The notes under the pieces were generated by a model, which saw only the letters and a list, made by a program, of their open reading frames with translations, did not search any database and had not been told where the DNA came from. Position numbers and translations under genes: made by a program. DNA of 64,000 nt from Scyliorhinus canicula. Lineage: Eukaryota. Of the stretch, positions 8,051 through 54,300 are shown in pieces (the first letter of the stretch is position 1; each line of letters starts with the position of its first letter). The stretch is taken from positions 215,337,677-215,401,676 of the forward strand of contig NC_052151.1 of the NCBI RefSeq assembly GCF_902713615.1, written 5' to 3'.

Positions 8051-9481
8051 GAACAGTCAAATGCAATCCCAAGTTCTCCGGAGTTACAGGAAAAGTGATT
8101 TAACCAATAATACTAAAAATAACCGATCACTTTGGCCATTGCAACTCCATTTCTCTTTTCTGCATTGCTATTTATTATTCTTGTTCATTTCGCCACAGCT
8201 CCATTCCTGCTTATTCTTCTTTTTGCCTCCGCTCCAAATTCCAATGCGTTATCTCCCTTTACTTTCCCCATTCCTTATGTCAGCTCCCCTCCCTTAAGCT
8301 GCCTCTGCATTTATATTGCTTCAAATTGACTTTCACGTTTTAACTGCAACCAACCTCTCCCCACAAGAATGTAATCGATGCTACAATCCTGGAATATCTT
8401 TCAAATTTAAATATTGAGCAATGGATGCAACTATATCCACCATCCTAGCTCCATATCATTCCTACATTACTAATTCACCAAGTACTTCCATTGGCGTGTA
8501 CTTTTGAATCTAAGTTAAATAAAACAGGGATAGGCCATCCACCTGACGACAACGCTCAGGAACCTCCACAGCCATCCGGTTATATAACTGCAAAGATTTT
8601 GTCACTTTTTAATTCATACTGCAACACAAACTTCGCCATTTACTGCCCGACTGATCTCGACCCGTCCCTACAGAAATGATATCACGACACCCTGGATTAA
8701 CGTCCGGTCAACTCCAGCCCCAGGTTCTACAGAGTCGCAACACAAATCAATGAACCAATAATTGTTATAAATCTACGCAAAAGCTTTGGCCGTTGGCTGC
8801 CAATATTCAAAGTCACCAGAATTGAAAACTTAAACAGTATTTAAAATATCTATAATGTAATATGTCGTAAAGACAACTGTTTAACTGTCACCACTACTTT
8901 ACTGAGCGGGACATTTACCAACATCAACGAAAATGCATTATGGTAAACAAGGACTATGGCTAACAATAGGTCATGAAGCTTGATAGTGAAGGTGCCAACA
9001 GACTTGGCTGTGTGAAAGTAACTGCTTCTCAGCAGAATTATTTTCATGCGAACGATATGAACAGCTTCAGCAGTTGAAACTTTCACTGATAACACCTTTG
9101 CTACGTAACATCGAAAATAAGACTATATCTCGCTTATTTTATGAATAGGGGCTTGCTGCGCTTCTGAGGCGTTTGCATGAATGAAACATAAACTAAGAAC
9201 TGAAACATTATAAAATGAAGCATCATCAAGATGCATCAGCGGTTACCACGAGAACAACTTTTGTAAGACAACATCCATTCTGAGAATGAACGCTTACAAT
9301 GCAGACCTCCAGAGAAAACCTGGCCAAGGTCACACTGGGCAGATCGTTATTTCTTCAAGCCTTGAGTACTGAAACATATAACTACTTAAATATAGCTATA
9401 AACTTGTATTAATTCAATTGACAGGGAGTATTCAATGTCGCCATAATTCGTCAGTCGATGCGAGCAGAGGCATCAACATTC

Positions 9482-9499
9482 TGGCACCCCATATGGGAA
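9482..9499 (+). promoter_or_regulatory. Primer-binding site, tRNA-Arg(CCT)-like
   Basis: TGGCACCCCATATGGGAA lies 3 nt after the LTR-terminal CA; 16/18 match to the recalled TGGCACCCCAGATGGGAC. Confidence 0.7.
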
Positions 9500-9949
9500 G
9501 ATGGAACTTCGTGGTCAGTTGGTGATCTTGTTCAGAGGTCGACATCTCAATCACCCATCCTGCACCGGAATTAAGAGGCATGCAGCCCCACCCGACGGCC
9601 AGGATTAGGTGCGTGAAGGCAGCAGTTTAAAAGGAGCTGGGTAGCCGATTGGTTCTGAGGGCGTTGTCGAACTACGGCCTTGCAGTCAAAATTGTCAGAG
9701 TAAAATTAAGAGTGACTAACGGTTATTACCAAAAGTAACATCCAATAGCCAGCCTTCAGCGGTGTACAGGAAACCTCGAGTTTAGACGTGGGTAGACAGA
9801 ACGAGAGGGGAGTGAAAAATGTATCTGGGAAGGAGTATCAAGGAGATACATTCTATTCTCTCCGTCTCCAAGGAGATCGCCAAAAATGGTCAATTACGTT
9901 GTTGATTAACTGAATTCGTTGAAATGACTAAGTCTCGGTCATTCACGGG

Positions 9950-10410
9950 GTGATTCAAAGGGATGTTGCCTCGGATGGAACATTTATGTTGTGGAAAGAG
10001 GTTGGATTGGCTTGGTTTGTTTTCGCTGGAGCAGAGAAAGCTGATCGAGTTGAAGATGATTATGAGGAGCATGGACACGGTGGATGGTGATCAGCTATTC
10101 CCCTCAGTTGAGGTTTAAGTTACAAGTGGACACAAGTCGCGCTAAGGGTCAGGATGGAGAGGGAAGAACAATCTATTTACCCAGAGAGTGGCGATGGTCT
10201 GGAATGCTCTGTCAGGAATGGTGGCAGAGGTCATTTGCCTCATATCCTTTAAAAATCTACCTGGATGTATACATGGCATATCTTAATAGTCACGTCTGTG
10301 CGACAAGTGCTGCCATATGCGATTGGTAGTCAGATCAGATGTCATTGATGTGTCGGTGCAGAATAGATGGGCTGAAGGGCCAATTTTGCATTGTATCCTT
10401 CTGTGATCCT
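9950..10410 (+). mobile_element. CR1 3' fragment nested in the proviral gag region
   Basis: GGATGTTGCCTCGGATGG...TTTTCGCTGGAGCAGAGAAAGCTGA...GATGGGCTGAAGGGCC CR1 tail. Confidence 0.7.
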
Positions 10411-10419
10411 GTGATGAGT

Positions 10420-10800
10420 CCGTAAATGGAGATTTCTTCACTGTTTAGATTCAGACGAGGAAATTAAACTCTTATTGATACATTTCCATTCGCCTGTTTT
10501 TTCTGACTTACCACATCCTAGGGCAACACTCGAGGACGTTAAACGGTCATAGTAATGGCTGTGGGATACAGTCGAGAGGAAACTGTAGACAGCCTGAATC
10601 ACTGCAGGCTAAGGAAATGTGAACATCACACGTCCTTTGCTAACCGCCTGTGGACACTAATGCTCCAGGTTGTGACACCAGTTGCGAGAATCAGAACACG
10701 TACATTTCTCGCAGACAATCACAGTTACGAAGCGGAACAGCATGAATGTCAGATTTTGACAGTGAATTGTCCCAAGCAACAGTTGGTGCTAAAACAACGA
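10420..10800 (+). pseudogene. gag (capsid-region) remnant of the provirus
   Basis: AVGYSREETVDSLNHCRLRKCEHHTSFANRLW resembles the MHR-like Q..E....F..RL motif; sits between PBS and integrase. Confidence 0.5.
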
Positions 10801-10899
10801 ACAGGCCAAGGAGGTTCGGACCGCCACCGACCACACCATGATAAATGTTGTATGGGCACAGAAGGTCGATGGTAATTTCAGTCTCCTTAAAAAATATAA

Positions 10900-12320
10900 A
10901 GCGAACATAGAGACAGGGGACCGTCGTGACCTTGTGGAGGAGAGTTATGTGGTGCCGAACCGAGACTGAAACTGGCTAATCTATCCATATGACGATCTAC
11001 AGGGACACCAAGGTGTGAATGCAATTTCGGAAATAATTAGAAGTTTATGTTGGTGGCCCGCAGAAGATGCCGACTAAGCATTATGTGGACAATTGTCTGG
11101 CATGTGACCAAAATAATCCAGATCATTATGCAAAGAAAGAAGTGATTGGATAGATCAGAGAGTTAAATGGGCTATGGGCTAGTTTACAAATGGACTATGT
11201 AAGTCCCTTGCCACCATGTCAGGAGGCTTTAAAATGCATTTTTGTCATCATCGATAACTTTAGTAAATGGATTCAAGCATTCCCTACGAGGAAAGGAACG
11301 AGAAACGTAGCAGCCAATGTGTTGGTAGAGCAGGTATTACCTGAATGGGTGCTCCCCGGTAGCATTGCATCACACCAAGGAAAATATGTCACCGGTCAGA
11401 TGACGCAGAATGCACTGACCCGACTGAGAATATTGTAGAAATTCCATATAGCCTATCCCCCACCATGAGCGGTATAGTGGAAAGAATTAAAATATATTTT
11501 TAGAACGTGATTCTGAAAACAGTCCATCAATATAAATCTACTTAGAATGCAGTTATGTCCTGTGCCCAAAAGATAGCAAGACACACAGTATTCAATTCAC
11601 CTAGTTTTACGCCCATATCCTGATGACAGGACGCACCATGAGAGGAGTGGAATCCTTGTTTGGGTTGTTAATAATAATAATATTTATTTTTGTCAAAAGT
11701 AGGCTTACATTAACAATGTAATTAAGTTACTGTCACAATCCCCTGGTCGCTATACTCCGGCGCCTGTTCTGGTGCACTGAGGGAGAATTCAGAATATCCA
11801 ATTCCTCTAACAAGCATTTCTTTCGGGACTTGTAGGAAGACACCATAGCACGCGGAGGAAACCTGCACAGACACGGAGATAATGTGCAGATTCTGTACAG
11901 ATAGTGAATCAAGCCGGGAATCAAACCTGGAACCATGGAGCTGTGAAGCAACAATGTTAACCACTCACTGTGCTACCGTGCCACCCATTGGAAATGTCAC
12001 AACCAGAATAGTAGCTTTGTGCTATGAAAGGGCTGTACACCAATTCAGAGATAATACCGAATCCTTGCAGATAGCCGCTGCATTAAGTTTAGAAAGAGAA
12101 GCGGAGCAAAACAAATTTTTATGAGAAGTTCTAGCCTGTCGAGTGTGAGATTGCGAATAAAGTCATGCTCCAAATTCGCCAGTAAGAAAACTGCCCCTAA
12201 ATATAGTGGATCACATTACATAGTAGATAAAACAAGTCTCTCTATGTGCAACATGTTGTACGACACTTGAAAAACTTGGTTGTACCATATAAATTAATTA
12301 AAACTATACAATCCTCCGGG
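10900..12320 (+). pseudogene. Retroviral-type integrase remnant (HHCC zinc finger, DDE core, GPY/F-like tail), split by a SINE
   Basis: GHQGVNA..., WWP, HYVDNCLACDQNNP, LQMDYVSPLPPC, VIIDNFSKWIQAFPT, SHQGKYVTG, FHIAYP, PKYSGSHYIVDK; contains stops and frameshifts. Confidence 0.85.
11670..11988 (-). mobile_element. V-SINE with a third tail type ((TTA)n-terminated)
   Basis: Standard head and V-domain; tail GGGGATTGTGACAGTAACTTAATTACATTGTTAATGTAAGCCTACTTTTGAC...TTATTATTAT on the minus strand. Confidence 0.85.
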
Positions 12321-13447
12321 AAATCACCAGCCCTATGAGTTGCTGTATGTGAATGAGAAAGACGCAGATGAGATTTTTCTCATTCCCTCATAGAAAATGG
12401 AGCGCACGGGCTACCACCACCGAAAGCTGAAAAATAGAAATGGGAAATATGAGAAGATAAATCCGACAAGATCCTAGTGAAGAAGTAATCTTGATCGATT
12501 GGCTATCTAGAGCATTCCTGTAAATAAAAGCAGATGCTACCTTTATCTCAATAATGCATACGGAAACATGGACCTTGAAACGTTCTTGTTGATTGAGTAT
12601 GATTACTCTCAGAACTTGTGGAACATAACATTAACAGAGATAACCAACTATGAAAAATACACCGGTCTGAAAAAGCCACAAATGTGAAAGCATTGAAACT
12701 TTAGCTAAAAGATAATATAATGTGAGAACTGAAACAAGACCTGTATGTGATATTGTCTCAAGGCATACTGCAAATAAAAACACTGATTAATAATGCACAC
12801 CGTGGATTAGTACCTTTAGTTTCAAATGCTGCAAAAATAGCACGCGGAGAATTTTGTCCTACCCTTGTCAAGCGACAATATAAATGATAAAGTAAATTAT
12901 TGTTCGCCCCAAGGAATGGGGATGACGGGAAAGGAGATGAAATGCACAGTGAAGGAACGACTACAGTTAACACTTTAGATTTACAAAATCTGGATGAAAC
13001 ATTTAGCGTTTTAATAGGACATGCTTAAAAATTAAGTTGGAAACAGAAACAATATCGTTTAGCGATGAATAAAGGATTAATTAACAAACTAATCAAGTCG
13101 GTTTGGATATCGTTTAAATACTAAAAAGACATTCAAAAACAATTAATTAGACAACAAAAGAGAATGCTAATGATTCAGACCAAAACCAGAATGAAATTAT
13201 TTGCTGTATTTCTGGAAATTGGCTAAGAGAGATTTTGAGGGAAAATTTGGTAGAAGTGAATGAGAGAATTAGCTTGAAAGGGAAGCATAAAATGAACTAA
13301 TTTGGCTGGACCCAAATGCAGGCTTGTGTCTGAACAGACATTATGTCTGTTTGGAAAACATTTTTGCAAACCTTAAAGTTAATCTAAGGCCAAGAAAGCA
13401 ATCCATATTGAAGGGAATTATCGTTGGTTGTTCCAAAAAAACAAGGA

Positions 13448-14155
13448 AGTGGACATCCCGGCGTTGTACTGAGGTATGCACAGTAAGAGGTCTTACAACA
13501 CCAGGTTAAAGTCCTACCAGTTAATTTGGAATCATTAGCTTTTGGAGGGTAGCTCTTCCATCAGCTGAGTGAAGATGGAGGTTACATAAACACAGCATAT
13601 ATAGACCATGCCAATGGTGCAAGATGGTATTTTGAACTCGAGTCTTCGCAGGTAATTAACTCTTTGCACATTCACGCGGAATAACTGGAGAGAAGGATAA
13701 TCACACATTAAAGAGACGTGAATTGTCTCAAGCCAGGACAGTTGGTAGTATTTCGCAAGCCCAGGCCATTTTGTGGGGGTAAAATGTAGTGAGACATAAA
13801 TCTAGGATCCCGGTTGAGGACATATTCATTAATGTGGAATTTATAATCAGTTTCTGCTCGGCGATTCTGTGTTGCTGTTTGTCCTGAAGGTCGCCTTGGA
13901 ACAATCTTACCTGAAGATCAGAGGCTGAATGCCCGTGACGTGTTTCCCGACGTCAGGAGACATTCCTGCCTTGTAATTGTCGCGTGATGTCTGTTCATCC
14001 ATTGTCGCAGTATCTGCAAGACCTCGTCAATGTACCACACCTCAGGACATCCTTTTCTGCAGTGTATGAGGTAGATAACGTTGGCCGAGACTCATGAGTA
14101 TGTATTGCGTACCTGGTCGATGGTGTACTCACGTGTAATGGTGGTATCCAAAACA
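13448..14155 (-). mobile_element. Penelope-like element 3' fragment (GIY-YIG endonuclease plus terminal repeat)
   Basis: Minus strand reads SANVIYLIHCRKGCPEVWYIDE...QILRQWMNRH; terminal repeat is shared with 5941-6120. Confidence 0.8.
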
Positions 14156-14689
14156 AGGATACGTCGAATTTGGCAGCAAACCAATTTACGTCTTCCAAAC
14201 ATTTGAGTTATGAAACCACGCCAAGTCAGTTAAAAACACATTTCACCAAACAGATCTTATTACGTTGCTGAAGGCGCAGAATTTGGATATTGGAATTGGA
14301 TATTTAAAAGGATCGACTGAAGAGATTATACATTAAAGGAAAAGAACAAAATATGTGTTCAAATTCAACAAAAGGACAAAATTATTTCTCCATCCAATCC
14401 CTACCCTTTTAGATTTTCGAGGAAAATGAACCATTTAAGCAGACAGCTGATTTGTTCGCAATCGCCCAGATAATTTTACAGGTTGGATTATATATATATA
14501 TATCTATGTTAATTCATATCAGGCTAAATTGTGAATTTGTGGGAATTTAACAAGACCAGCAAATTTTTGAAATTTTAAGTACAGGTCAGAGCAATTTGAT
14601 TTTCGTGTGAGAATTACATTAGTTGTCATATCCAGCGAGGTAATGAACAAAACATTAGTAGGAACTATACTGGACAAATGTCAGCAAAC

Positions 14690-16490
14690 CAGCAACCCGA
14701 CATACGTGGAAATGGAGGAACGAAAAATCCACCTGGAGGCCCGACCCAGCCTACTCCAAGACGAGTCTCTAGGAACGCCCAAGGAGGGAACAGACCCAGC
14801 CTAACAACCCTCAGGAAGCCCCTTGCCCGCGACCCAGGACCCCCGAAACGGAGCAGAACCCGGTCGAGGACCCGAACGCGCTGAAAGTTATTTCCGTGCT
14901 CGCAGTAGACTGTGACCCATCCGCATCGCAAACATGCCCCACCAGCAACCACACCTCCTCAACTAGCGCCCGGGAACTTGCCAGACGCGAACCCGAAAAC
15001 GTAACCAGGACACTGTTCCCAGCCAGCGCCCCGCCCCCCACCAGACGCAACCACCAACATTCTACAAGGTCTGACCTCTCCATTCGGATGCCGGGACCAT
15101 CCAGCCTAAGCCGATCGAGGAAGCGAGGGAAACCGGCAGTCTGCACGTGAGACTGAAGCCGTTTTAAGACTCCTCTCCCCAGCATACCCCTGGAAAATTC
15201 CAAGCGATCGAAAACAAGCTGGATGCATTTAACGCAAGGTTTGCCTCTCAGAGGTAAGTAAGATAGCTGTGTGCTCTGTTTCACAGAGACATCGCTCACA
15301 CACACCTCACCCGATTGTTCCATACAACCTGACAGCGTCTCAATTCATTGGGCGGACCGCAACACATCATCAGGCAATGCGAAGGGTGGAGGGGTTTGAC
15401 TCCTCATCAACTCCTTCTAGTCCTTGGATGTCGCGACTCTGGTGATCGACCGGGAGCAGGAATACCTGACCCTGAATTGTCGCCTATACTGTCCTCCACG
15501 TGAGTTGACTTCAGCCATTATCACAGCCGTCAACATCCCACCCCAGGCAGAAGTGAAGAAGGCACTGGACAAACTGTGCACAGTTATGAAACAGACGCAC
15601 TGAGGTATTGTTCGTCGTGGCCAGGGACGTCAACAAGGCCAACCTCAAGAATGTACTGCCAAAATTCCACCAGCACATCTCTGGTCCCCCCAGGGGTGAA
15701 AACACTCTTGACCACTGCAACACAAAAATCGGCGCCAACTGTTCCATCCCCCGATCCCACTTTGGGAAACCCGACCATAAGCTGGTGCTCCTGCTCGCAG
15801 TATACAAGCAGAAACTCAAGCGGGAGAATCCATCTAAGAAGGTCGTGCAGTGCTGGTCCGAGAGAACAGAAGAGCTCCTAAGTGACTGCTTAGGGACAGT
15901 GCACTCGTCCATATTTAAAAACTCTGCGACCAACTCAAAGGAATATGCCATCATCTTCATAGACCTCATCAGCAAATGTATGGATGACTGGATGCCAAGG
16001 AAAACAGTACGTACGTTCTCCAACCGGAAACCACGGCTCAATCTTTAGATTGACTCCCTCCTGAAGGGCAGTCTGAGGCCTTAAAGTCCGGCGGCCCTGA
16101 CCTGTTCAAGAAATCCAAGTACGACCCCCACAAAGCTATCCGAGATGCCAAGACAGAATATCAGACCAAGCTCGAGTCATAGACAAGCGTCACAGACTCT
16201 CGGTGATTGTGGCAAGACCTAATCAAAATATGGCCCACAAAGCGATGCTTGGATCGAGCAGGAAACGAACGATTCGCTGTCGGGTGCCACAGCAGCCCAT
16301 AACCCACTCATATCCACCAGCACAGGTCACAAAGTCAGATTTCCTTTCCTGAAAGTGAACCCTCGGAAGGCGACGGGTTGGGATTGGATCTCTGGCTGTG
16401 CACTTAGCGTCTGTGTGGACTAGCTGGCAAATGTGTTCACGTTCATCTTTAACCTGTCCCTCCTCCGCTCCGAGGACCCCACCACCGTGT
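14690..16490 (+). mobile_element. Rex1/Babar-type LINE, 5' part (endonuclease to start of RT), degraded
   Basis: CVLCFTET, GGGV, DVNKANLKNVLPKFHQHI...RGENTLDHC, HFGKPDHKLVLLLAVYKQKLK, FSNRKP. Confidence 0.75.
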
Positions 16491-17003
16491 GTATTGCAGA
16501 CAGGTGAGCATGTAACGTTTCCCCTCCAAGTTAGAGTCCGAAGAACAGAGATCACAAGCGTTGCACGTGTGGTTAAAAAAGAATGATGTGTCACCATCTC
16601 ATTAAGAAAATAACGGTAGGGAATCAAATGTTCCCTGTTGGAAAATTTTACATAAACCCCTAAGTGTCAACCAGATTTGGTCAAATGGAGTTAGTTGATA
16701 TTGAAAAACGGAAACAAAACCAAAATAACGTCATGGAAGCAATGAAATCTGAAATTACTGTTTACTGGGAAAAACATGTGCCAACAATACAATCATTATC
16801 AGAAGATTAAAGAAATACATAAACATTAAGAACACCTCAAATATGTCTATATCACATCAGAAAGTGTTACAAGAGGTAAGTGTAATTAAAACCAACATAT
16901 GAACTAAAAGATAAAAGTTCGTGGGATGATACTTGGAAATGAGTCACAAAGATACAGCTTTATCCAAAGGAACATGAAAGTTACTTGATTGTTTATATTC
17001 ACC

Positions 17004-17094
17004 TATAACTTTAATAAACTTGAATTAATTCAACTAGCAGTGAGTATTCCATTTTGTCTGTATTGGTCAGTTGATGCCACCCGAGGCACCAACA
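17004..17094 (+). repeat. 3' LTR remnant (R/U5) of the provirus with poly(A) signal
   Basis: AATAAA at 17013-17018; 78% identical to 9398-9478; terminal CA at 17093-17094. Confidence 0.8.
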
Positions 17095-48360: not shown

Positions 48361-51300
48361 ATAAGAACACAAGAACTAGGAGCAGGAGTAGGCCCTTCTA
48401 CCCTGAAATCATGGCTGATCTTGTGTGGATTCAACTCCACTTGCCCGCCTGAACAACATAACGCTTTATTCCTGTATTCTTCAAAGTACTATCTATCTTT
48501 ATCTAGACAACATTTAACGAAGGAGCTTCAACTGCTTCACTGCGCAGGGAAGTCAATAGATTCACAAACGTTTGGGTGAAGAATTCCATTCTAACATCAG
48601 TCCTAAATCTACTTCCACTTATTTTGAGGCTCTGGTCCCAAGTTTTGCTTTCACCCGCCTGTGGAAAATATCTCGCCGCATCTCTCTTATATACTCCCTT
48701 TATATTTTTTTGTTTGTATAATATCCCGCTACATAATTCTAAATTCGAACGAGCACAGTCCCAGTCTACTCAACCTCTGTTCGTAACCAACGCCTCACGT
48801 CAGGGATTAAGCTCGTGAGTCACCTTTGCACACCGCCCAGCGCCAGTACACCATTTCTTGTTAAAGGAGGACAAAACTGAACACAATACTCCAGGTGTGG
48901 CCTCACTAACACCTTATACAGTTGCAGCATAACCACCCTCGTGTTAAACTTCATTCCTCGAGCAATGAAGGACAAACTCCATTCGCCTTCTTCATCGCCT
49001 GTTGCACCTGTAAACCAACATTTTGCTACTCATGCACGGGGACCCCCAGGTCTCTCTAGAGAGCGGCATGTTTTAATATTTTATCATTTAAATAATTATC
49101 CTTTTGCTGTTATTTCTACCAAAATGGACAACCTCACATTTTTCAACTTTCTATTCCATCTGCCAGACACTAGCCCATACACTTAAACTATCCAAATCCC
49201 TCTGCACGGGGTGGGCATCGGATCATTAGTCAGAAGGTGAAAGAATTGAGGAAGAACGAGGGAGTAGGGCCAGTTTGGCACTGAGGAAGAGCAGAGAGGG
49301 AGATGTTGCTGAAAACAGTGGGTCTGGTGGCCTGAAGTGCATATTTTTTAATGCAAGAAGTATTACGGGTAAGACAGATGAACATAGAGCTTGGATTAGT
49401 ACTTGGAAATATGAGGTTGTTGCCAATACAGAGACCTGGTTGAGGGAAGGACAGGTTTGTCTGCTAAATGTTCCAGGATTTAGATGTTTCAGGCGGAATA
49501 AAGGGGGTGAAAAAGGGGAGGCGGAGTTGCGCTACTGGTTAGGGAGAATTCCTGTAACAGCCTCCCCGAACAGGCGCCGGAATGTGGCGACTAGGGGCTT
49601 TTCACAGTAACTTCATTGAAGCCTACTGGTGACAATAAGCGATTTTCATTTCACTTTCATTCCATAGCACAGCTGTACTGCGGGAGGACACCTCAGATGG
49701 CAGCGAGGCTATATAGGTAGAGATCAGGAATAAGAAGGGTGCAGTCACAATGTTGGGGATTTACTACAGGCCTCCCAACAGCCAGCAGGAGATAGAGGAG
49801 CAGATACGTAGACAGATTTTGGAAACGACTGAAAACAATAAGGTGGTTGTGATGGGAGACTTCAACTTTCCCAATATTGACTGGGGCTCACTGTGTGCTA
49901 GGGGCTTAGACGGATCAGAGTTTGAAAGGAGCATCCAGGAGGGCTTCTTAAAACAATATGTAGACAGTCCAACAAGGGAAGGGGCTGTACTAGACCTGGT
50001 TTGGGGAATGAACCCCTACAGGTTGTAGAAGTTTCAGTAGGAGAGTATTTCGGGAACAGTAACCAGAATTCAGTAAGTTTTAACGTGCTGGTGCACAAGG
50101 ATAAGAGTTGTCCTCTGGTGAATGTGCTAAATTGGGGGAAGGATAATTTTTAAAAATATTAGGCGGGAACTGATAACCTTGATCAGGCGTGGATGTTTGA
50201 GGGTAAATGAACATCTGACATGTGGGAGGCTTTCAAATGTCAGTTGAAAGGAATTCAGGAGCGCCATGTTCCTTTTCGGAAGATGGATAAATACGGCAAA
50301 TTTCGGGAACCTTGGATAACGAGAGTTATTATATGCCTCGTCAAAAAGAAAAAGGAGGCATTCGTCAGGGCAAGAAGGCTGGGAACAGGCGAAGCCTGTG
50401 TAGAATATAACGAAAGTAGGAAGGAACGTAAGCAAGGAGTCAGAAGGCTAGAAGGTGTCACGAAAAGTTATTGGCAAATAGGATTAAGTAAAAACCCACA
50501 GCTTTTTACACGTGCATAAAAAGCAAGAGGGTAGCCCGGGAAAGGGTTGGCCCACTGAAGGATAGGCAAGGGAATATATGCGTGGAACCAGAGGAAATGG
50601 GCGAGGTAATAAATAAATGCTTTGCATCAGTATTGACCAAAGAGAAGGAATGGGTTGATTTTGAGTCTGGTGAAGGGTGTGCAGATAGCCTGGGTCACAT
50701 TGAGATCCAAAAGACGAGGTGTTGGGCGACTTGAAATATATTAAGTTAGATGCGTCCCCAGGGCCTGATGGGATTTACAGCAGAATACTGAAGGAGGCTA
50801 GAGAGGAAATTGGTGAGGCCTTGACAGAAATCTTTGGATCCTCACTGTCTACATGTGATGTCCAGGAGGACTGGAGAATAGCCAATGTTGTCCCTTTGTT
50901 TAAGAAGGGTAGCAATGCTAATCCAGGGAACTACAGGCCGGTGAGCCTTACGTCAGTGGTAGGGTTATTACTGGAGAGATCTCTTCGCGACAGGATCTAC
51001 TTCCATTTGGAAGCAAATGGACGTATTAGTGAGAGGCAGCATGGTTTTCTGAAGGGAAGGTCGTGTCTCACTAACTTTACAGAGTTTTTCGAAGAGGTCG
51101 CAAAGTTGATTCATGCAGGTAGGGCAGTGGATGTTTTCCATATGGACTTCAGTAAGGCCTTTGACAACGTTTCTCATGGTAGACTGGTAAAAAAGGTGAA
51201 GTCACACGGGATCAGCGGTGAACTGGCAAGGTGGATACAGAACTCGCTAGGTCTTAGAAGGCAGAGAGTAGAAATGAAAGGGTGCTTTTCTAATTGGAGG

Positions 51301-54300
51301 GCTGTGACTAGTGGTCTTCTGCAGAGATCAGTGCTGTTCGTAGTAGGTATACATTATTTGGGGGGAAATGTAACTGGTCTCATTAGTAAGTTTTCAGATG
51401 ACACAAAGGTTCGTGGAATTGTGGATAGCGACGAGGACTGTCAGATGATACAGAAGGATTTAGATCTTTTGGAGACTTGGGCGGAGAGATGGCAGACGGA
51501 GTTTAATCCGGACAAATGTGAGGTAATGCATTTTGGAAGGTCGAATGCAGGTTGGCAATATACAGTGAATGGTGGAACCCTCAATAGTATTGAAAGTCAG
51601 ATAGATCTAGGTGTACAGATCCACAGGTCACTGAGAAGGGCAACACAGGTGGAGACGGTAGTGAAGAAGGCATACGGCATGCTTGCCTTCATTGGCCGGG
51701 GCATTGAGTATAATATTTGGCAAGTCATGTTGCAGCTGAACGGAAACTTAGTTAGGCCATACTTGGAGTATAGTGTTAAATTCTGGTTGCCACACTACCA
51801 GAAGGATGTGGAGGCTTTAGAGCGGCTGCAGAAGAGATTTACCAGGATGTTGCCTGGTATGGAGGGCATGAGCTATTAGGAGCGGTTGAATAAACTCGGT
51901 ATGTTCTCACTGGAATGACGGAGGATGAGGGGCGACCTGATAGATGTCTACAAAACTTTGAGGGGCATAGACAAAGGGGATAGTCAGGGGCTTTTCCCCA
52001 CGGCAGAGGGGTCAATTACTAGGGGGCATACGTTTAAGGTGCGAGGGGCAACGTTTAGAGGAGGTTTACGAGGCACGTTTTTTACACAAAGGGTAGTGGG
52101 TGCTTGGAACTCGTTGCCGGAGGAGGTGGTGGAAGCAGGAACAATGGTGACATTTAAGGGGCATCTTGACAGATATATGAATAAGATGGGAATAGAGCGA
52201 TACGGACCCAGGAAGTGTAGAAGATTTTAGTTTAGTTGGGCAGCATGGTCGGCACGGGTTTGGAGGGACTAAAGGCCTGTTCCTCTGCTGTACATGTCTT
52301 TGTTCTTTTGTTATTTGTTGACTTCCTGTTCCCTCTGCACTTTTTGTTTACCACTCATCTTTGTGTCGTCTGCAAACTTGGACACATTGCACTTGGTCCC
52401 CATCTGCAAATCATCTCGGTAAATTGTGAAAAAATGTGAGCCGCACTCTGAGCCCTGATGAACACTACTAGCTACTGATTGCCAACCAGAGAAACATGGA
52501 TTAACTCCCACTCTTTGCTTTCTATTAATTAACTAATCTTCTATCCATGCCACTTAACGCCAACCACCATTATCTTATGCAGCAACCTTTTGTGAGGCAC
52601 CTTGTCAAATCCTTTCTGGAAATGCAGATATACCACATCCATTGGCTTCCCGTTGCCTACCGCACTCGTAATATTCTCAAACAATTCCACTAAATTAGTT
52701 AGGCACGATGTGCACTTTATGAACCAATGCTGCGTCTGTCGAATGGAAAATTTCAATCCAGATGCCTCGGTATTTCTTGCTTGGTGACAGATTGCAGCAT
52801 GGTTCCTTCTACAGAAGTTAACACAACTGCCCTATAATTACCCGCTTGCTGCCTACCTCGTTTTTAAAAAAGTGGTATCCTGGTTGCTAAGTTCCAATCC
52901 GCCGGGACCACACAAGTGACTAGTGAATTTTGGTAAATTATCACGAGTGCATTTGGAATTTCCTAGCAATTACTTTTAGTACCCTGGAATGCATTCCATC
53001 AGGGCATGCAGACTTGTCCACCTTTAGCCTCATTAGCTTGCCCGTCGCAACGTCCTTACTGATAACAATCGCCTCAAGGTCCTCACCTGTCACAACCTTC
53101 TTTCCAACAGTCATTGGCGTGTTATTTGAGTCTTCCACTGTGAAGACCGACCCAAAAGCCCTGTTCAGTTCCTCAACCATATCCTCATCTCACATTATTA
53201 AATCACCTTTCTCATCCTCCAAAAGGGCCAATAGTTACCTTAGCCACTCTTGTTTTGTTTTCTCGATTTGTACAAACTTTTGCTATCTGTGTTTTATATT
53301 CTGAGCAAGTTTACTCTCATAATCTAACTTACTCTTCTTTATAGCTTTTTTAATAGCTTTCTGTTGCCCTCTAAAGATTCACAATCTTCTAGTCTCCCAC
53401 TAATCTTTTTCACTTTGTATGCTTTTTCCTTCAATTTGATTCTCTCCCTTATTTCCATAGCTACCCATTGTCGATTTTCCCTGTTTCTACCATCCTTCCT
53501 TTTCGTTTGTATAAACTCTGGCTGAGCACTGTGAAAAATCGCTTGGTGGTTTCTCAACTGTTTCTCAACTCTTCCACCATAAAGTCTTTGCTCCCAGTAT
53601 TCAATAGCCAGCTCTTATCTCATCCTGTTGTAATCTTTATTTAAGCACAAAACACCAGCGTTTGATTCTAATTTCTGACCCCTCATCTGTATTTTAAATT
53701 CATCCATATTGTGAGCACTCCTTCCGAGAGGATCCCGAATTATGAAATCATTAATCAATCATGTCTCATTACACAGGACCAGATCTGGGATCGCTTGTTG
53801 CCTCATTGGTTCCATTACATATTGTGCTAGAAAGCTATCGCAAATACATTCTATAAACTTCTGCTCAAGACTGCCTTGACCGACCTGGTTAAACCAATCG
53901 ACATGTAGATTAAAACCCCCATTATAACTGCTGTACCATTTCTGCATGCAACAGTTATTTATTTGTGTATTGCCCGCCCCACCCAAATGTTACTCTTTGT
54001 GGTCTATAGCCGACTCCTGTTAGTGACATTTTCGCCTTACTATTCCTGAATTCCACCCATCTGGATCCAATCTTATCCTTCACTACTGCTCGGAATCATG
54101 TTTAGAAAACAGAGCTACACCACCTCCCTTACCATCTCCTCAGTCCTTCCAAAAAATTTGATACCCTTGGATATTGAACTCAAAGTTGTGACCATTATTT
54201 TCCCATGTTTCAGTAATGGCCACTAAATCATAATCATTCACGATGATTTGCGCCATCAATTCGTATACATTAATCCCAATACTACCAGCATTCAGGTAAA

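Follow-up and report, generated by a model that had tools for sequence, protein, structure and literature searches.

The window analysed here, a 64-kb stretch of the genome of the catshark Scyliorhinus canicula (genome contig label C6), contains the remains of an endogenous retrovirus (ERV) at ~8900-17094. The element retains long terminal repeats (LTRs), a tRNA-Arg-type primer-binding site and remnants of gag, tether, integrase and env; four later insertions interrupt it, two internal deletions are shared with other copies, and siblings bearing a reverse transcriptase (RT) occur in the same genome. It is best explained, with a probability of roughly 85%, as a copy, long dead and devoid of RT, of a family that groups with canonical retroviruses by RT and integrase, likely near the grade of snakehead retrovirus (SnRV; clade Huo, class III-like), and whose env is predicted to encode an F-type class I fusion protein. 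Coordinates are positions within the window; locus labels (L041, L139 and so on) denote 10-kb stretches of the catshark genome, and labels such as P0019 denote database proteins. The features are as follows.

8900-9478, plus strand: 5' LTR of ~550-580 bp, start approximate, from an alignment of ten LTR starts
9482-9499, plus strand: primer-binding site of tRNA-Arg(CCT) type, 16 of 18 positions
9500-9941, plus strand: leader and N-terminal gag remnant, by collinearity only, with L041, L048, L050 and L055
9950-10425, plus strand: nested 3' end of a long interspersed nuclear element (LINE), presumably CR1-like; tblastn match to a LINE open reading frame (ORF) in L050, E 3e-11
10434-10653, plus strand: gag capsid remnant, 49% identical over 37 aa to the gag of L061, ending at a deletion junction common to other copies
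10654-10850, plus strand: tether end (degenerate RNase H), with a second deletion that removes most of the RNase H; protease and RT absent
10844-11667, plus strand: integrase zinc finger and core, with stops and frameshifts (Pfam PF17921 and PF00665; tblastn E 6e-50; tree)
11668-11986, no strand assigned: nested short interspersed repeat, present in 45 of 62 10-kb loci examined
11987-12390, plus strand: C-terminal part of the integrase with a GPY/F-like module
12400-13445, plus strand: env part 1, comprising the N-terminal (F2-like) region, a damaged basic cleavage site (~12927-12938), a fusion-peptide remnant (12942-13013), and heptads with a conserved Cys-Gly-Trp segment (13094-13276), from tblastn to unbroken natural pieces
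13446-14146, minus strand: nested retroelement 3' end with an endonuclease-like frame, presumably Penelope-like; a short duplicated target flanks the insert
14147-14695, plus strand: env part 2, the beta-rich middle, collinear with L022, L030 and L038, with protein matches at 14645-14695
14696-16486, plus strand: nested LINE fragment, Rex1-like in the original prediction (label unchecked), with an 80% identical copy in L055
16487-16975, plus strand: env part 3, ending in a Trp-rich membrane-proximal stretch; transmembrane helix deleted; profile match from 16640
17014-17094, plus strand: truncated 3' LTR, reduced to its final 81 bp, with CA at its end

The original prediction, made from the letters of the window, had described paired LTR ends, and these were borne out by a direct repeat at 9398-9478 and 17014-17094 (63 of 81 positions identical; blastn E 1.5e-13). 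The 81-bp size did not hold, since the true LTR measures ~550 bp in alignment with other copies; blastn alignments ran continuously between window 8923-9509 and the 5' LTR of L041, and between 8957-9478 and the 3' LTR of L045. The 3' end of the element is short by ~0.8 kb near 16975-17013, a loss that comprises the env transmembrane anchor, the tail and most of U3. A 300-bp gapped LTR match (9177-9478 with 16806-17094) was rejected because other copies show 16806-16975 to be env and not U3. No clear target-site duplication was found at the outer LTR ends. The proposed tRNA-Arg-like primer-binding site was likewise upheld: the 18-mer motif is perfect (18/18) in L041 and L048, and host tRNA genes carry its complement at their 3' end; ARAGORN assigned these genes to Arg(CCT) in five of six loci and to Lys(CTT) in one. 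A tRNA-Arg primer-binding site is a feature of SnRV.

Between the LTRs, no direct protein match was obtained for the leader and gag remnant at 9500-9941. The claimed HHCC-DDE-GPY/F integrase was recovered with its zinc finger (PF17921, E 4.7e-4), its core (rve, PF00665, E 2e-5) and a GPY/F-like module (12193-12345), but the second catalytic D is not retained. Three of the nested inserts are confirmed, since other copies run straight across the junctions 11667/11987, ~13445/14147 and 14695/16487; the fourth, the LINE 3' end at ~9950-10425, is missing from L041 at the corresponding place. The Penelope, Rex1 and CR1 labels come from motifs and not from a comparison with a repeat library, and we take them as such. 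The extra coding-like segment after the integrase, originally put at ~1.7 kb, proved to have real homology to env, as its profile match showed, and amounts to ~2.1 kb of env-derived DNA counted from 12400. The RERR motif indeed lies at the basic cleavage-site position of the family, ~175 codons into the ORF; it is a remnant damaged by short deletions, and its frame differs from that of the fusion-peptide remnant. The absence of RT and of most of the RNase H had escaped the original prediction.

The nature of the envelope was predicted with the help of related copies. Their unbroken env pieces combine a basic cleavage site with a fusion-peptide-like stretch and heptads, and further contain a beta region rich in Cys, a segment rich in Trp and a single anchor. 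With a natural env piece of 292 aa, 25 relatives were detected by phmmer; among the 10 looked up by name, 8 were from four shark genera (Heterodontus, Mustelus, Chiloscyllium and Pristiophorus), one was from a frog and one had no name. A profile built from 16 database proteins, with no catshark-genome sequence included, matched the window on either side of the inserts (13016-13267, E 3.8e-10; from 16640, E 2.3e-9), while five shuffles gave either no match or none above -3 bits. The cleavage site lies at residue 236-287 in the full-length relatives. The best 19-aa hydropathy at the env end of the window was 1.3, versus 2.45 in the relative L073, and the transmembrane helix is therefore considered lost in the window copy.

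For the full-length relative P0019, the top match in the Atlas language-model search (0.95) was the Fusion_gly/Baculo_F cluster, and the ten best family matches all belonged to one clan. The predicted structure of P0020 (pLDDT 62, pTM 0.41) matched the F proteins of human parainfluenza virus 3 (E 1.7e-6), henipavirus and respiratory syncytial virus (RSV) as well as foamy virus Env, which tied for best at Z 8.3; its best match in the viral library BFVD was the Env of walleye epidermal hyperplasia virus 1 (WEHV1). The 292-aa env piece from the catshark genome matched the same families, weakly. These results, linked to the window by the profile, support the F-like env of the original prediction, and the shark env is predicted with high confidence to encode an F-type class I fusion protein. 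Two walleye epsilonretrovirus Envs in BFVD (Q9WHI8 and A4GTG3, of WEHV1 and walleye dermal sarcoma virus, WDSV) were the top fold matches of the shark Env family, which suggests that they may also be of the F type. No paper was found that calls the WEHV1 or WDSV Env F-type, nor one dealing directly with an F-like Env among ERVs of sharks or of the SnRV-like or epsilon groups, in a search that left most subscription journals outside.

The lineage was analysed with the intact pol of a young neighbouring element, whose homologue search returned at least 120 proteins. Papers are cited here and below by identifier. Reference labels were assigned where motifs were identical to those in the PMC7947760 supplement (P0049, SnRV-like; P0038-P0041 and P0125, lokiretroviruses). 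RT trees, rooted on Gypsy, were built on a chosen subset of 78 rows (quick) or 32 rows (careful). The RT and integrase trees held no reference nameable as foamy or ERV-L, and a scan of viral contigs for named retroviral references, foamy RT included, returned none. In the careful tree, the lokiretroviruses (100/100) were sister to a 22-row canonical clade (100/98) holding the shark rows, i.e., L139 and L143 from the window's own family together with L098, L116 and L114. Forcing the shark rows together with the lokiretroviruses made the tree worse by 44.8 log units (approximately unbiased test, AU, p=4.3e-5), and the quick tree agreed with the careful one. The RT pieces of L139 and L143 carry an LP.GFH-type motif as in SnRV, not the RCPFGY of lokiretroviruses. 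The RT of L114, an intact relative, was 55-57% identical to those of frog and coelacanth ERVs, 47.5% to P0049, 36-40% to five proteins with lokiretroviral motifs and 39% to a gamma-like protein. The RT fell outside Gypsy (100/100) and outside the gamma/epsilon-like clade (100/99), a clade labelled from motifs and host names.

In the integrase tree (52 rows), the window's own frame was placed in a 12-row clade of catshark-genome sequences (100/99), apart from the lokiretroviruses, which formed a clade of their own elsewhere (100/100), and outside Gypsy (100/96); it did not group within env-less Gypsy clades or epsilon/gamma ERVs, and it lacks the lokiretroviral core motif VTCAFTKW. In each of the three trees (two RT, one integrase), SnRV fell at a fork that stayed open, and the nearest named rows were frog and coelacanth ERVs. 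On these sequence comparisons, the family is firmly judged to be a canonical retrovirus and not a lokiretrovirus, and it probably belongs to the SnRV grade.

Several observations weigh against this interpretation. The window itself has no RT, and its placement is borrowed from siblings that are ~70% identical in DNA. The link to SnRV is no more than likely, given the open fork in trees that include no reference nameable as foamy or ERV-L, and the SnRV and lokiretrovirus labels depend on motif identity with one supplement. The integrase tree joins the lokiretroviruses with the frog and coelacanth ERVs (91/74), so that integrase by itself separates these groups poorly. For the envelope, PF00523 was matched by no env piece or relative, and Pfam searches yielded no viral fusion family for pieces from the window (45), the family (21) or its sister (14), nor for 15 database proteins or P0026. 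A PF00523 search of the catshark genome gave 0 matches, but under a stricter first look in which the controls were silent too, and it carries no weight. Sequence searches of the PDB with L073 and with profile A1 returned no F protein. The structural models are of middling quality (pTM 0.41 and 0.34), with TM-scores no higher than ~0.26 and VIA Z values of 8.4 and 5.6. With the 292-aa piece, Atlas gave only matches below 0.9 to mixed viral glycoproteins, and the wide VIA search gave Z 5.6 for foamy Env and Z 5.1 for RSV F, both within the background range.

The original prediction had assigned the element to the lokiretroviruses, which would be their first record from cartilaginous fish and new in view of the survey of Wang and Han, who found them in none of six chondrichthyan genomes (PMC7947760). 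The F-like env, whose basic cleavage site falls within the N-terminal third and whose motif order by eye resembles that of a published lokiretroviral Env, agrees with that assignment, as do the tether plus RNase H and the coiled coil 5' of the capsid in relatives, and an L114 integrase 46-49% identical to integrases with lokiretroviral motifs. The RT motif and the trees, however, put the family outside the lokiretroviruses, a group defined by an RT that is sister to those of all canonical retroviruses, and the window integrase does not join their clade; all retroviruses share the dual RNase H, which is hence not diagnostic; and the cleavage site lies far beyond the ~120 residues seen in one published lokiretroviral Env. 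Nor does an F-like env identify a lokiretrovirus, since foamy Env is F-like too and so, by fold search, are the walleye epsilonretrovirus Envs. The assignment is largely refuted and must be held highly improbable. Lower still is the probability that the element is an env-less Gypsy element or a gamma/epsilon ERV with a non-coding or gamma-type 3' segment. The WEHV1 Env was the top BFVD match for both structural models, but the tree positions of RT and integrase contradict such an origin, as does the dual RNase H of relatives, where Gypsy has a single one; the 3' segment counts full-length glycoproteins among its homologues, and no TLV_coat match was found by Pfam among the window, family or sister pieces or the database proteins; as tested, this possibility is refuted.

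A foamy-like ERV (clade Tu) would account for the foamy Env being the best PDB match of the catshark env piece (Z 5.6, weak) and tying for best with P0020, and foamy references were absent from the trees. Foamy viruses, however, have a Gag without a zinc knuckle, a spliced pol and a Lys primer-binding site. The Gag of the sister family described below carries a CCHC knuckle (PF00098, E 7e-8) in a part of gag that is deleted in the window, its gag adjoins pol in frame across one stop, and the shark env ends in one Trp-rich segment with a single anchor; a foamy-like origin is thus very unlikely. A recombinant, with a canonical (SnRV-grade) gag-pol and an env acquired from elsewhere, be it a lokiretrovirus or some other virus with an F protein, is less improbable. 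Recombination between pol and env is frequent in anamniote ERVs (bioRxiv 2021.11.23.469661), and the env slot is labile here, the young sister family having lost env and gained a different ORF. On the other hand, env homologues in four shark genera and a frog, together with related folds in foamy and epsilon Envs, fit old vertical inheritance, and no lokiretroviral Env was recognised among the 25 phmmer matches, 10 of them looked up by name. Recombination seems unlikely.

The family is abundant and decayed. Env-region DNA gave 45 matches in the catshark genome including self (non-self identity 62-82%), and two env pieces used as protein queries gave at least 150 and at least 137 matches; a word-index search with a 94-aa integrase piece gave none. 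No young env-bearing copy occurred among the env matches listed, where the longest open frames in the scored subsets were below ~475 aa, except for L118 (see below).

The window lacks protease and RT, the capsid joining the tether at ~10653, and most of the RNase H is gone. In a survey of 30 ten-kb stretches, eight other copies were informative: the gag-to-tether junction was spanned by one alignment in L041, L054, L135, L137, L141 and probably L055 (5-6 of 8), while RT and RNase H were kept in L139 and L143 (2 of 8), the former also retaining its tether. At the 10653 junction, two short and similar motifs, each with a tryptophan, are fused in frame, a hint that template switching at microhomology produced it. 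Because the same junction recurs in 5-6 copies while L139 and L143 keep RT, mobilisation in trans appears likely.

In five pieces, the copies differed to a similar extent at all three codon positions, with no excess at third positions and hence no sign of selection on env within the burst, as expected of neutral decay afterwards. LTR divergence, measured on 81 bp, was p 0.22 (95% CI 0.14-0.33), or 0.26 by the Kimura two-parameter model (K2P). The latter would correspond to ~60 My under the mammalian rate applied in PMC7947760, and the rate of PMC4422223 would yield 600 My, which is impossible. Since the rates are too uncertain, no date is claimed beyond an integration probably tens of millions of years old or more; with the four insertions, this agrees with the old, nested integration proposed originally.

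The history of the element may be reconstructed as follows. An infectious ancestor would have entered cells by means of a furin-cleaved F2/F1-like Env with fusion peptide, heptad repeats and membrane anchor; with tRNA-Arg as its primer for reverse transcription, it would have become established in the germ line by integration. Intact siblings likely supplied the RT by which a deleted derivative, still equipped with LTRs, primer-binding site, integrase and env, was copied in trans in one burst. Later transposons would have landed inside the copy, and all examined copies then presumably decayed neutrally, the window copy also losing its anchor and most of its 3' LTR. Most likely, it does nothing today.

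Other members of the group are better preserved. A second env-bearing subfamily (L098, L100, L111, L115 and L116) has RT-tether-RNase H-integrase remnants and an env ~35-45% identical to that of the window subfamily. A young sister family (L061:1-9934, at C7:166620000+, with near-identical copies in L107 and L114) dominates the integrase matches in the catshark genome; its LTRs of ~990 bp are 99.6% identical, and gag, protease, RT, tether, RNase H and integrase are present, the tether and RNase H being recognised by Pfam as a dual RNase H. It has no F-like env, and in its place stands a 141-aa ORF with signal-peptide-like and transmembrane-like stretches, resembling a membrane protein. A coiled-coil-like frame occurs 5' of the capsid in L061, L054 and L143, with only weak and unrelated Pfam matches; some lokiretroviruses have a coiled-coil gene of smc type. 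Elsewhere in the window, the longest open frame is a LINE RT of 391 aa (50704-51876), and no other long coding frame of note was observed.

The strongest lead lies outside the window. L118 (L125:690-2951; C14:36601692-36603950, minus strand) is a single-copy, intact env-like ORF of 754 codons, 98% identical to P0026 from Scyliorhinus torazame and 86% identical to P0019 from Chiloscyllium punctatum; the next-best match to it in the catshark genome reaches 46%. No gag, pol or LTR-like pair was found within 30 kb, and in neutral simulations to 14% protein change the frame stayed open in 0 of 300 trials. L118 is thus a candidate F-type env that was likely captured as a host gene. A published screen for env genes in sharks (bioRxiv 723177) would have missed F-type genes, since it used syncytin queries and required an immunosuppressive domain, and bioRxiv 2021.11.23.469661, in its available text, covers gamma- and beta-type Env. 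To judge from the title of PMC6669660, which concerns co-opted foamy ERVs, there may already be precedents for a captured F-type env.

The window copy is most likely inert, and the interest of the shark family lies in how retroviral Env arose. The combination of a canonical, non-foamy pol with an F-type Env, whose fold also matches those of foamy and walleye epsilon viruses, speaks for an F-type Env that is old in Retroviridae, which becomes testable by comparing an Env tree with an RT tree; meanwhile, an F-like env should not serve to call a lokiretrovirus. The chances seem about even that the F-type env is an old retroviral state, kept in a widespread canonical shark lineage, in foamy viruses and in walleye epsilonretroviruses, and that sharks domesticated one such gene (L118), kept since before the catshark/bamboo shark split, as an F-type counterpart of the syncytins that gamma-type screens could not find.

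Among known systems, for which PMC10435555, PMC12813294, PMC10587355 and bioRxiv 564294 were also consulted, the closest are the SnRV-related ERVs, described as clade Huo by Xu et al. 2018 (PMC6001957) and as the SnRV clade in PMC12193657, and known in the elephant shark as CmiERV lineage I (PMC4422223). They share with the shark family a canonical RT with SnRV-like motifs, dual RNase H, a chondrichthyan host and, as in SnRV, a primer-binding site for tRNA-Arg. The SnRV clade also has accessory ORFs and complex splicing; the shark copies are much decayed, and the 3' end of the window copy is deleted. They differ in that the nearest RT neighbours of the shark family are frog, coelacanth and unnamed ERVs and not SnRV itself, that the available SnRV literature does not describe an F-type Env for the group, and that the window copy belongs to an RT-less subfamily.

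The lokiretroviruses (Wang and Han 2020, PMC7947760) have the same gag-pol-env layout with tether and RNase H, and resemble the shark family at the entry step, in an Env that is F-like (predicted for the sharks) with a basic cleavage site followed by fusion peptide and heptads. The RT clade and motif and the integrase clade differ, and the shark Env has a longer N-terminal part and does not match PF00523. Lokiretroviral integrase is closest to CGIN1. Four scenarios for the origin of env were left open in PMC7947760, and separate gains in lokiretroviruses and canonical retroviruses were preferred in PMC9040795. Foamy Env is F-like (PMC11468914; PDB 8rm0 and 8rm1), and the F-type core that it shares with paramyxovirus and pneumovirus F proteins is predicted in the shark Env as well. 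Identity, however, is only ~10-15%, the shark Env gives no evidence of a foamy leader peptide or a large receptor-binding insert, and the associated Gag has a CCHC knuckle.

The RT-less subfamily that retains integrase and env represents an unusual non-autonomous design. Its nearest parallel is provided by the BHIKHARI families of zebrafish, non-autonomous lokiretroviral LTR elements that lack pol and spread in trans (bioRxiv 2024.03.25.586437), as is likely for the shark subfamily. In contrast to Bik-2, which keeps gag and lacks pol and env, the shark subfamily lost much of gag, protease and RT, and kept integrase and env.

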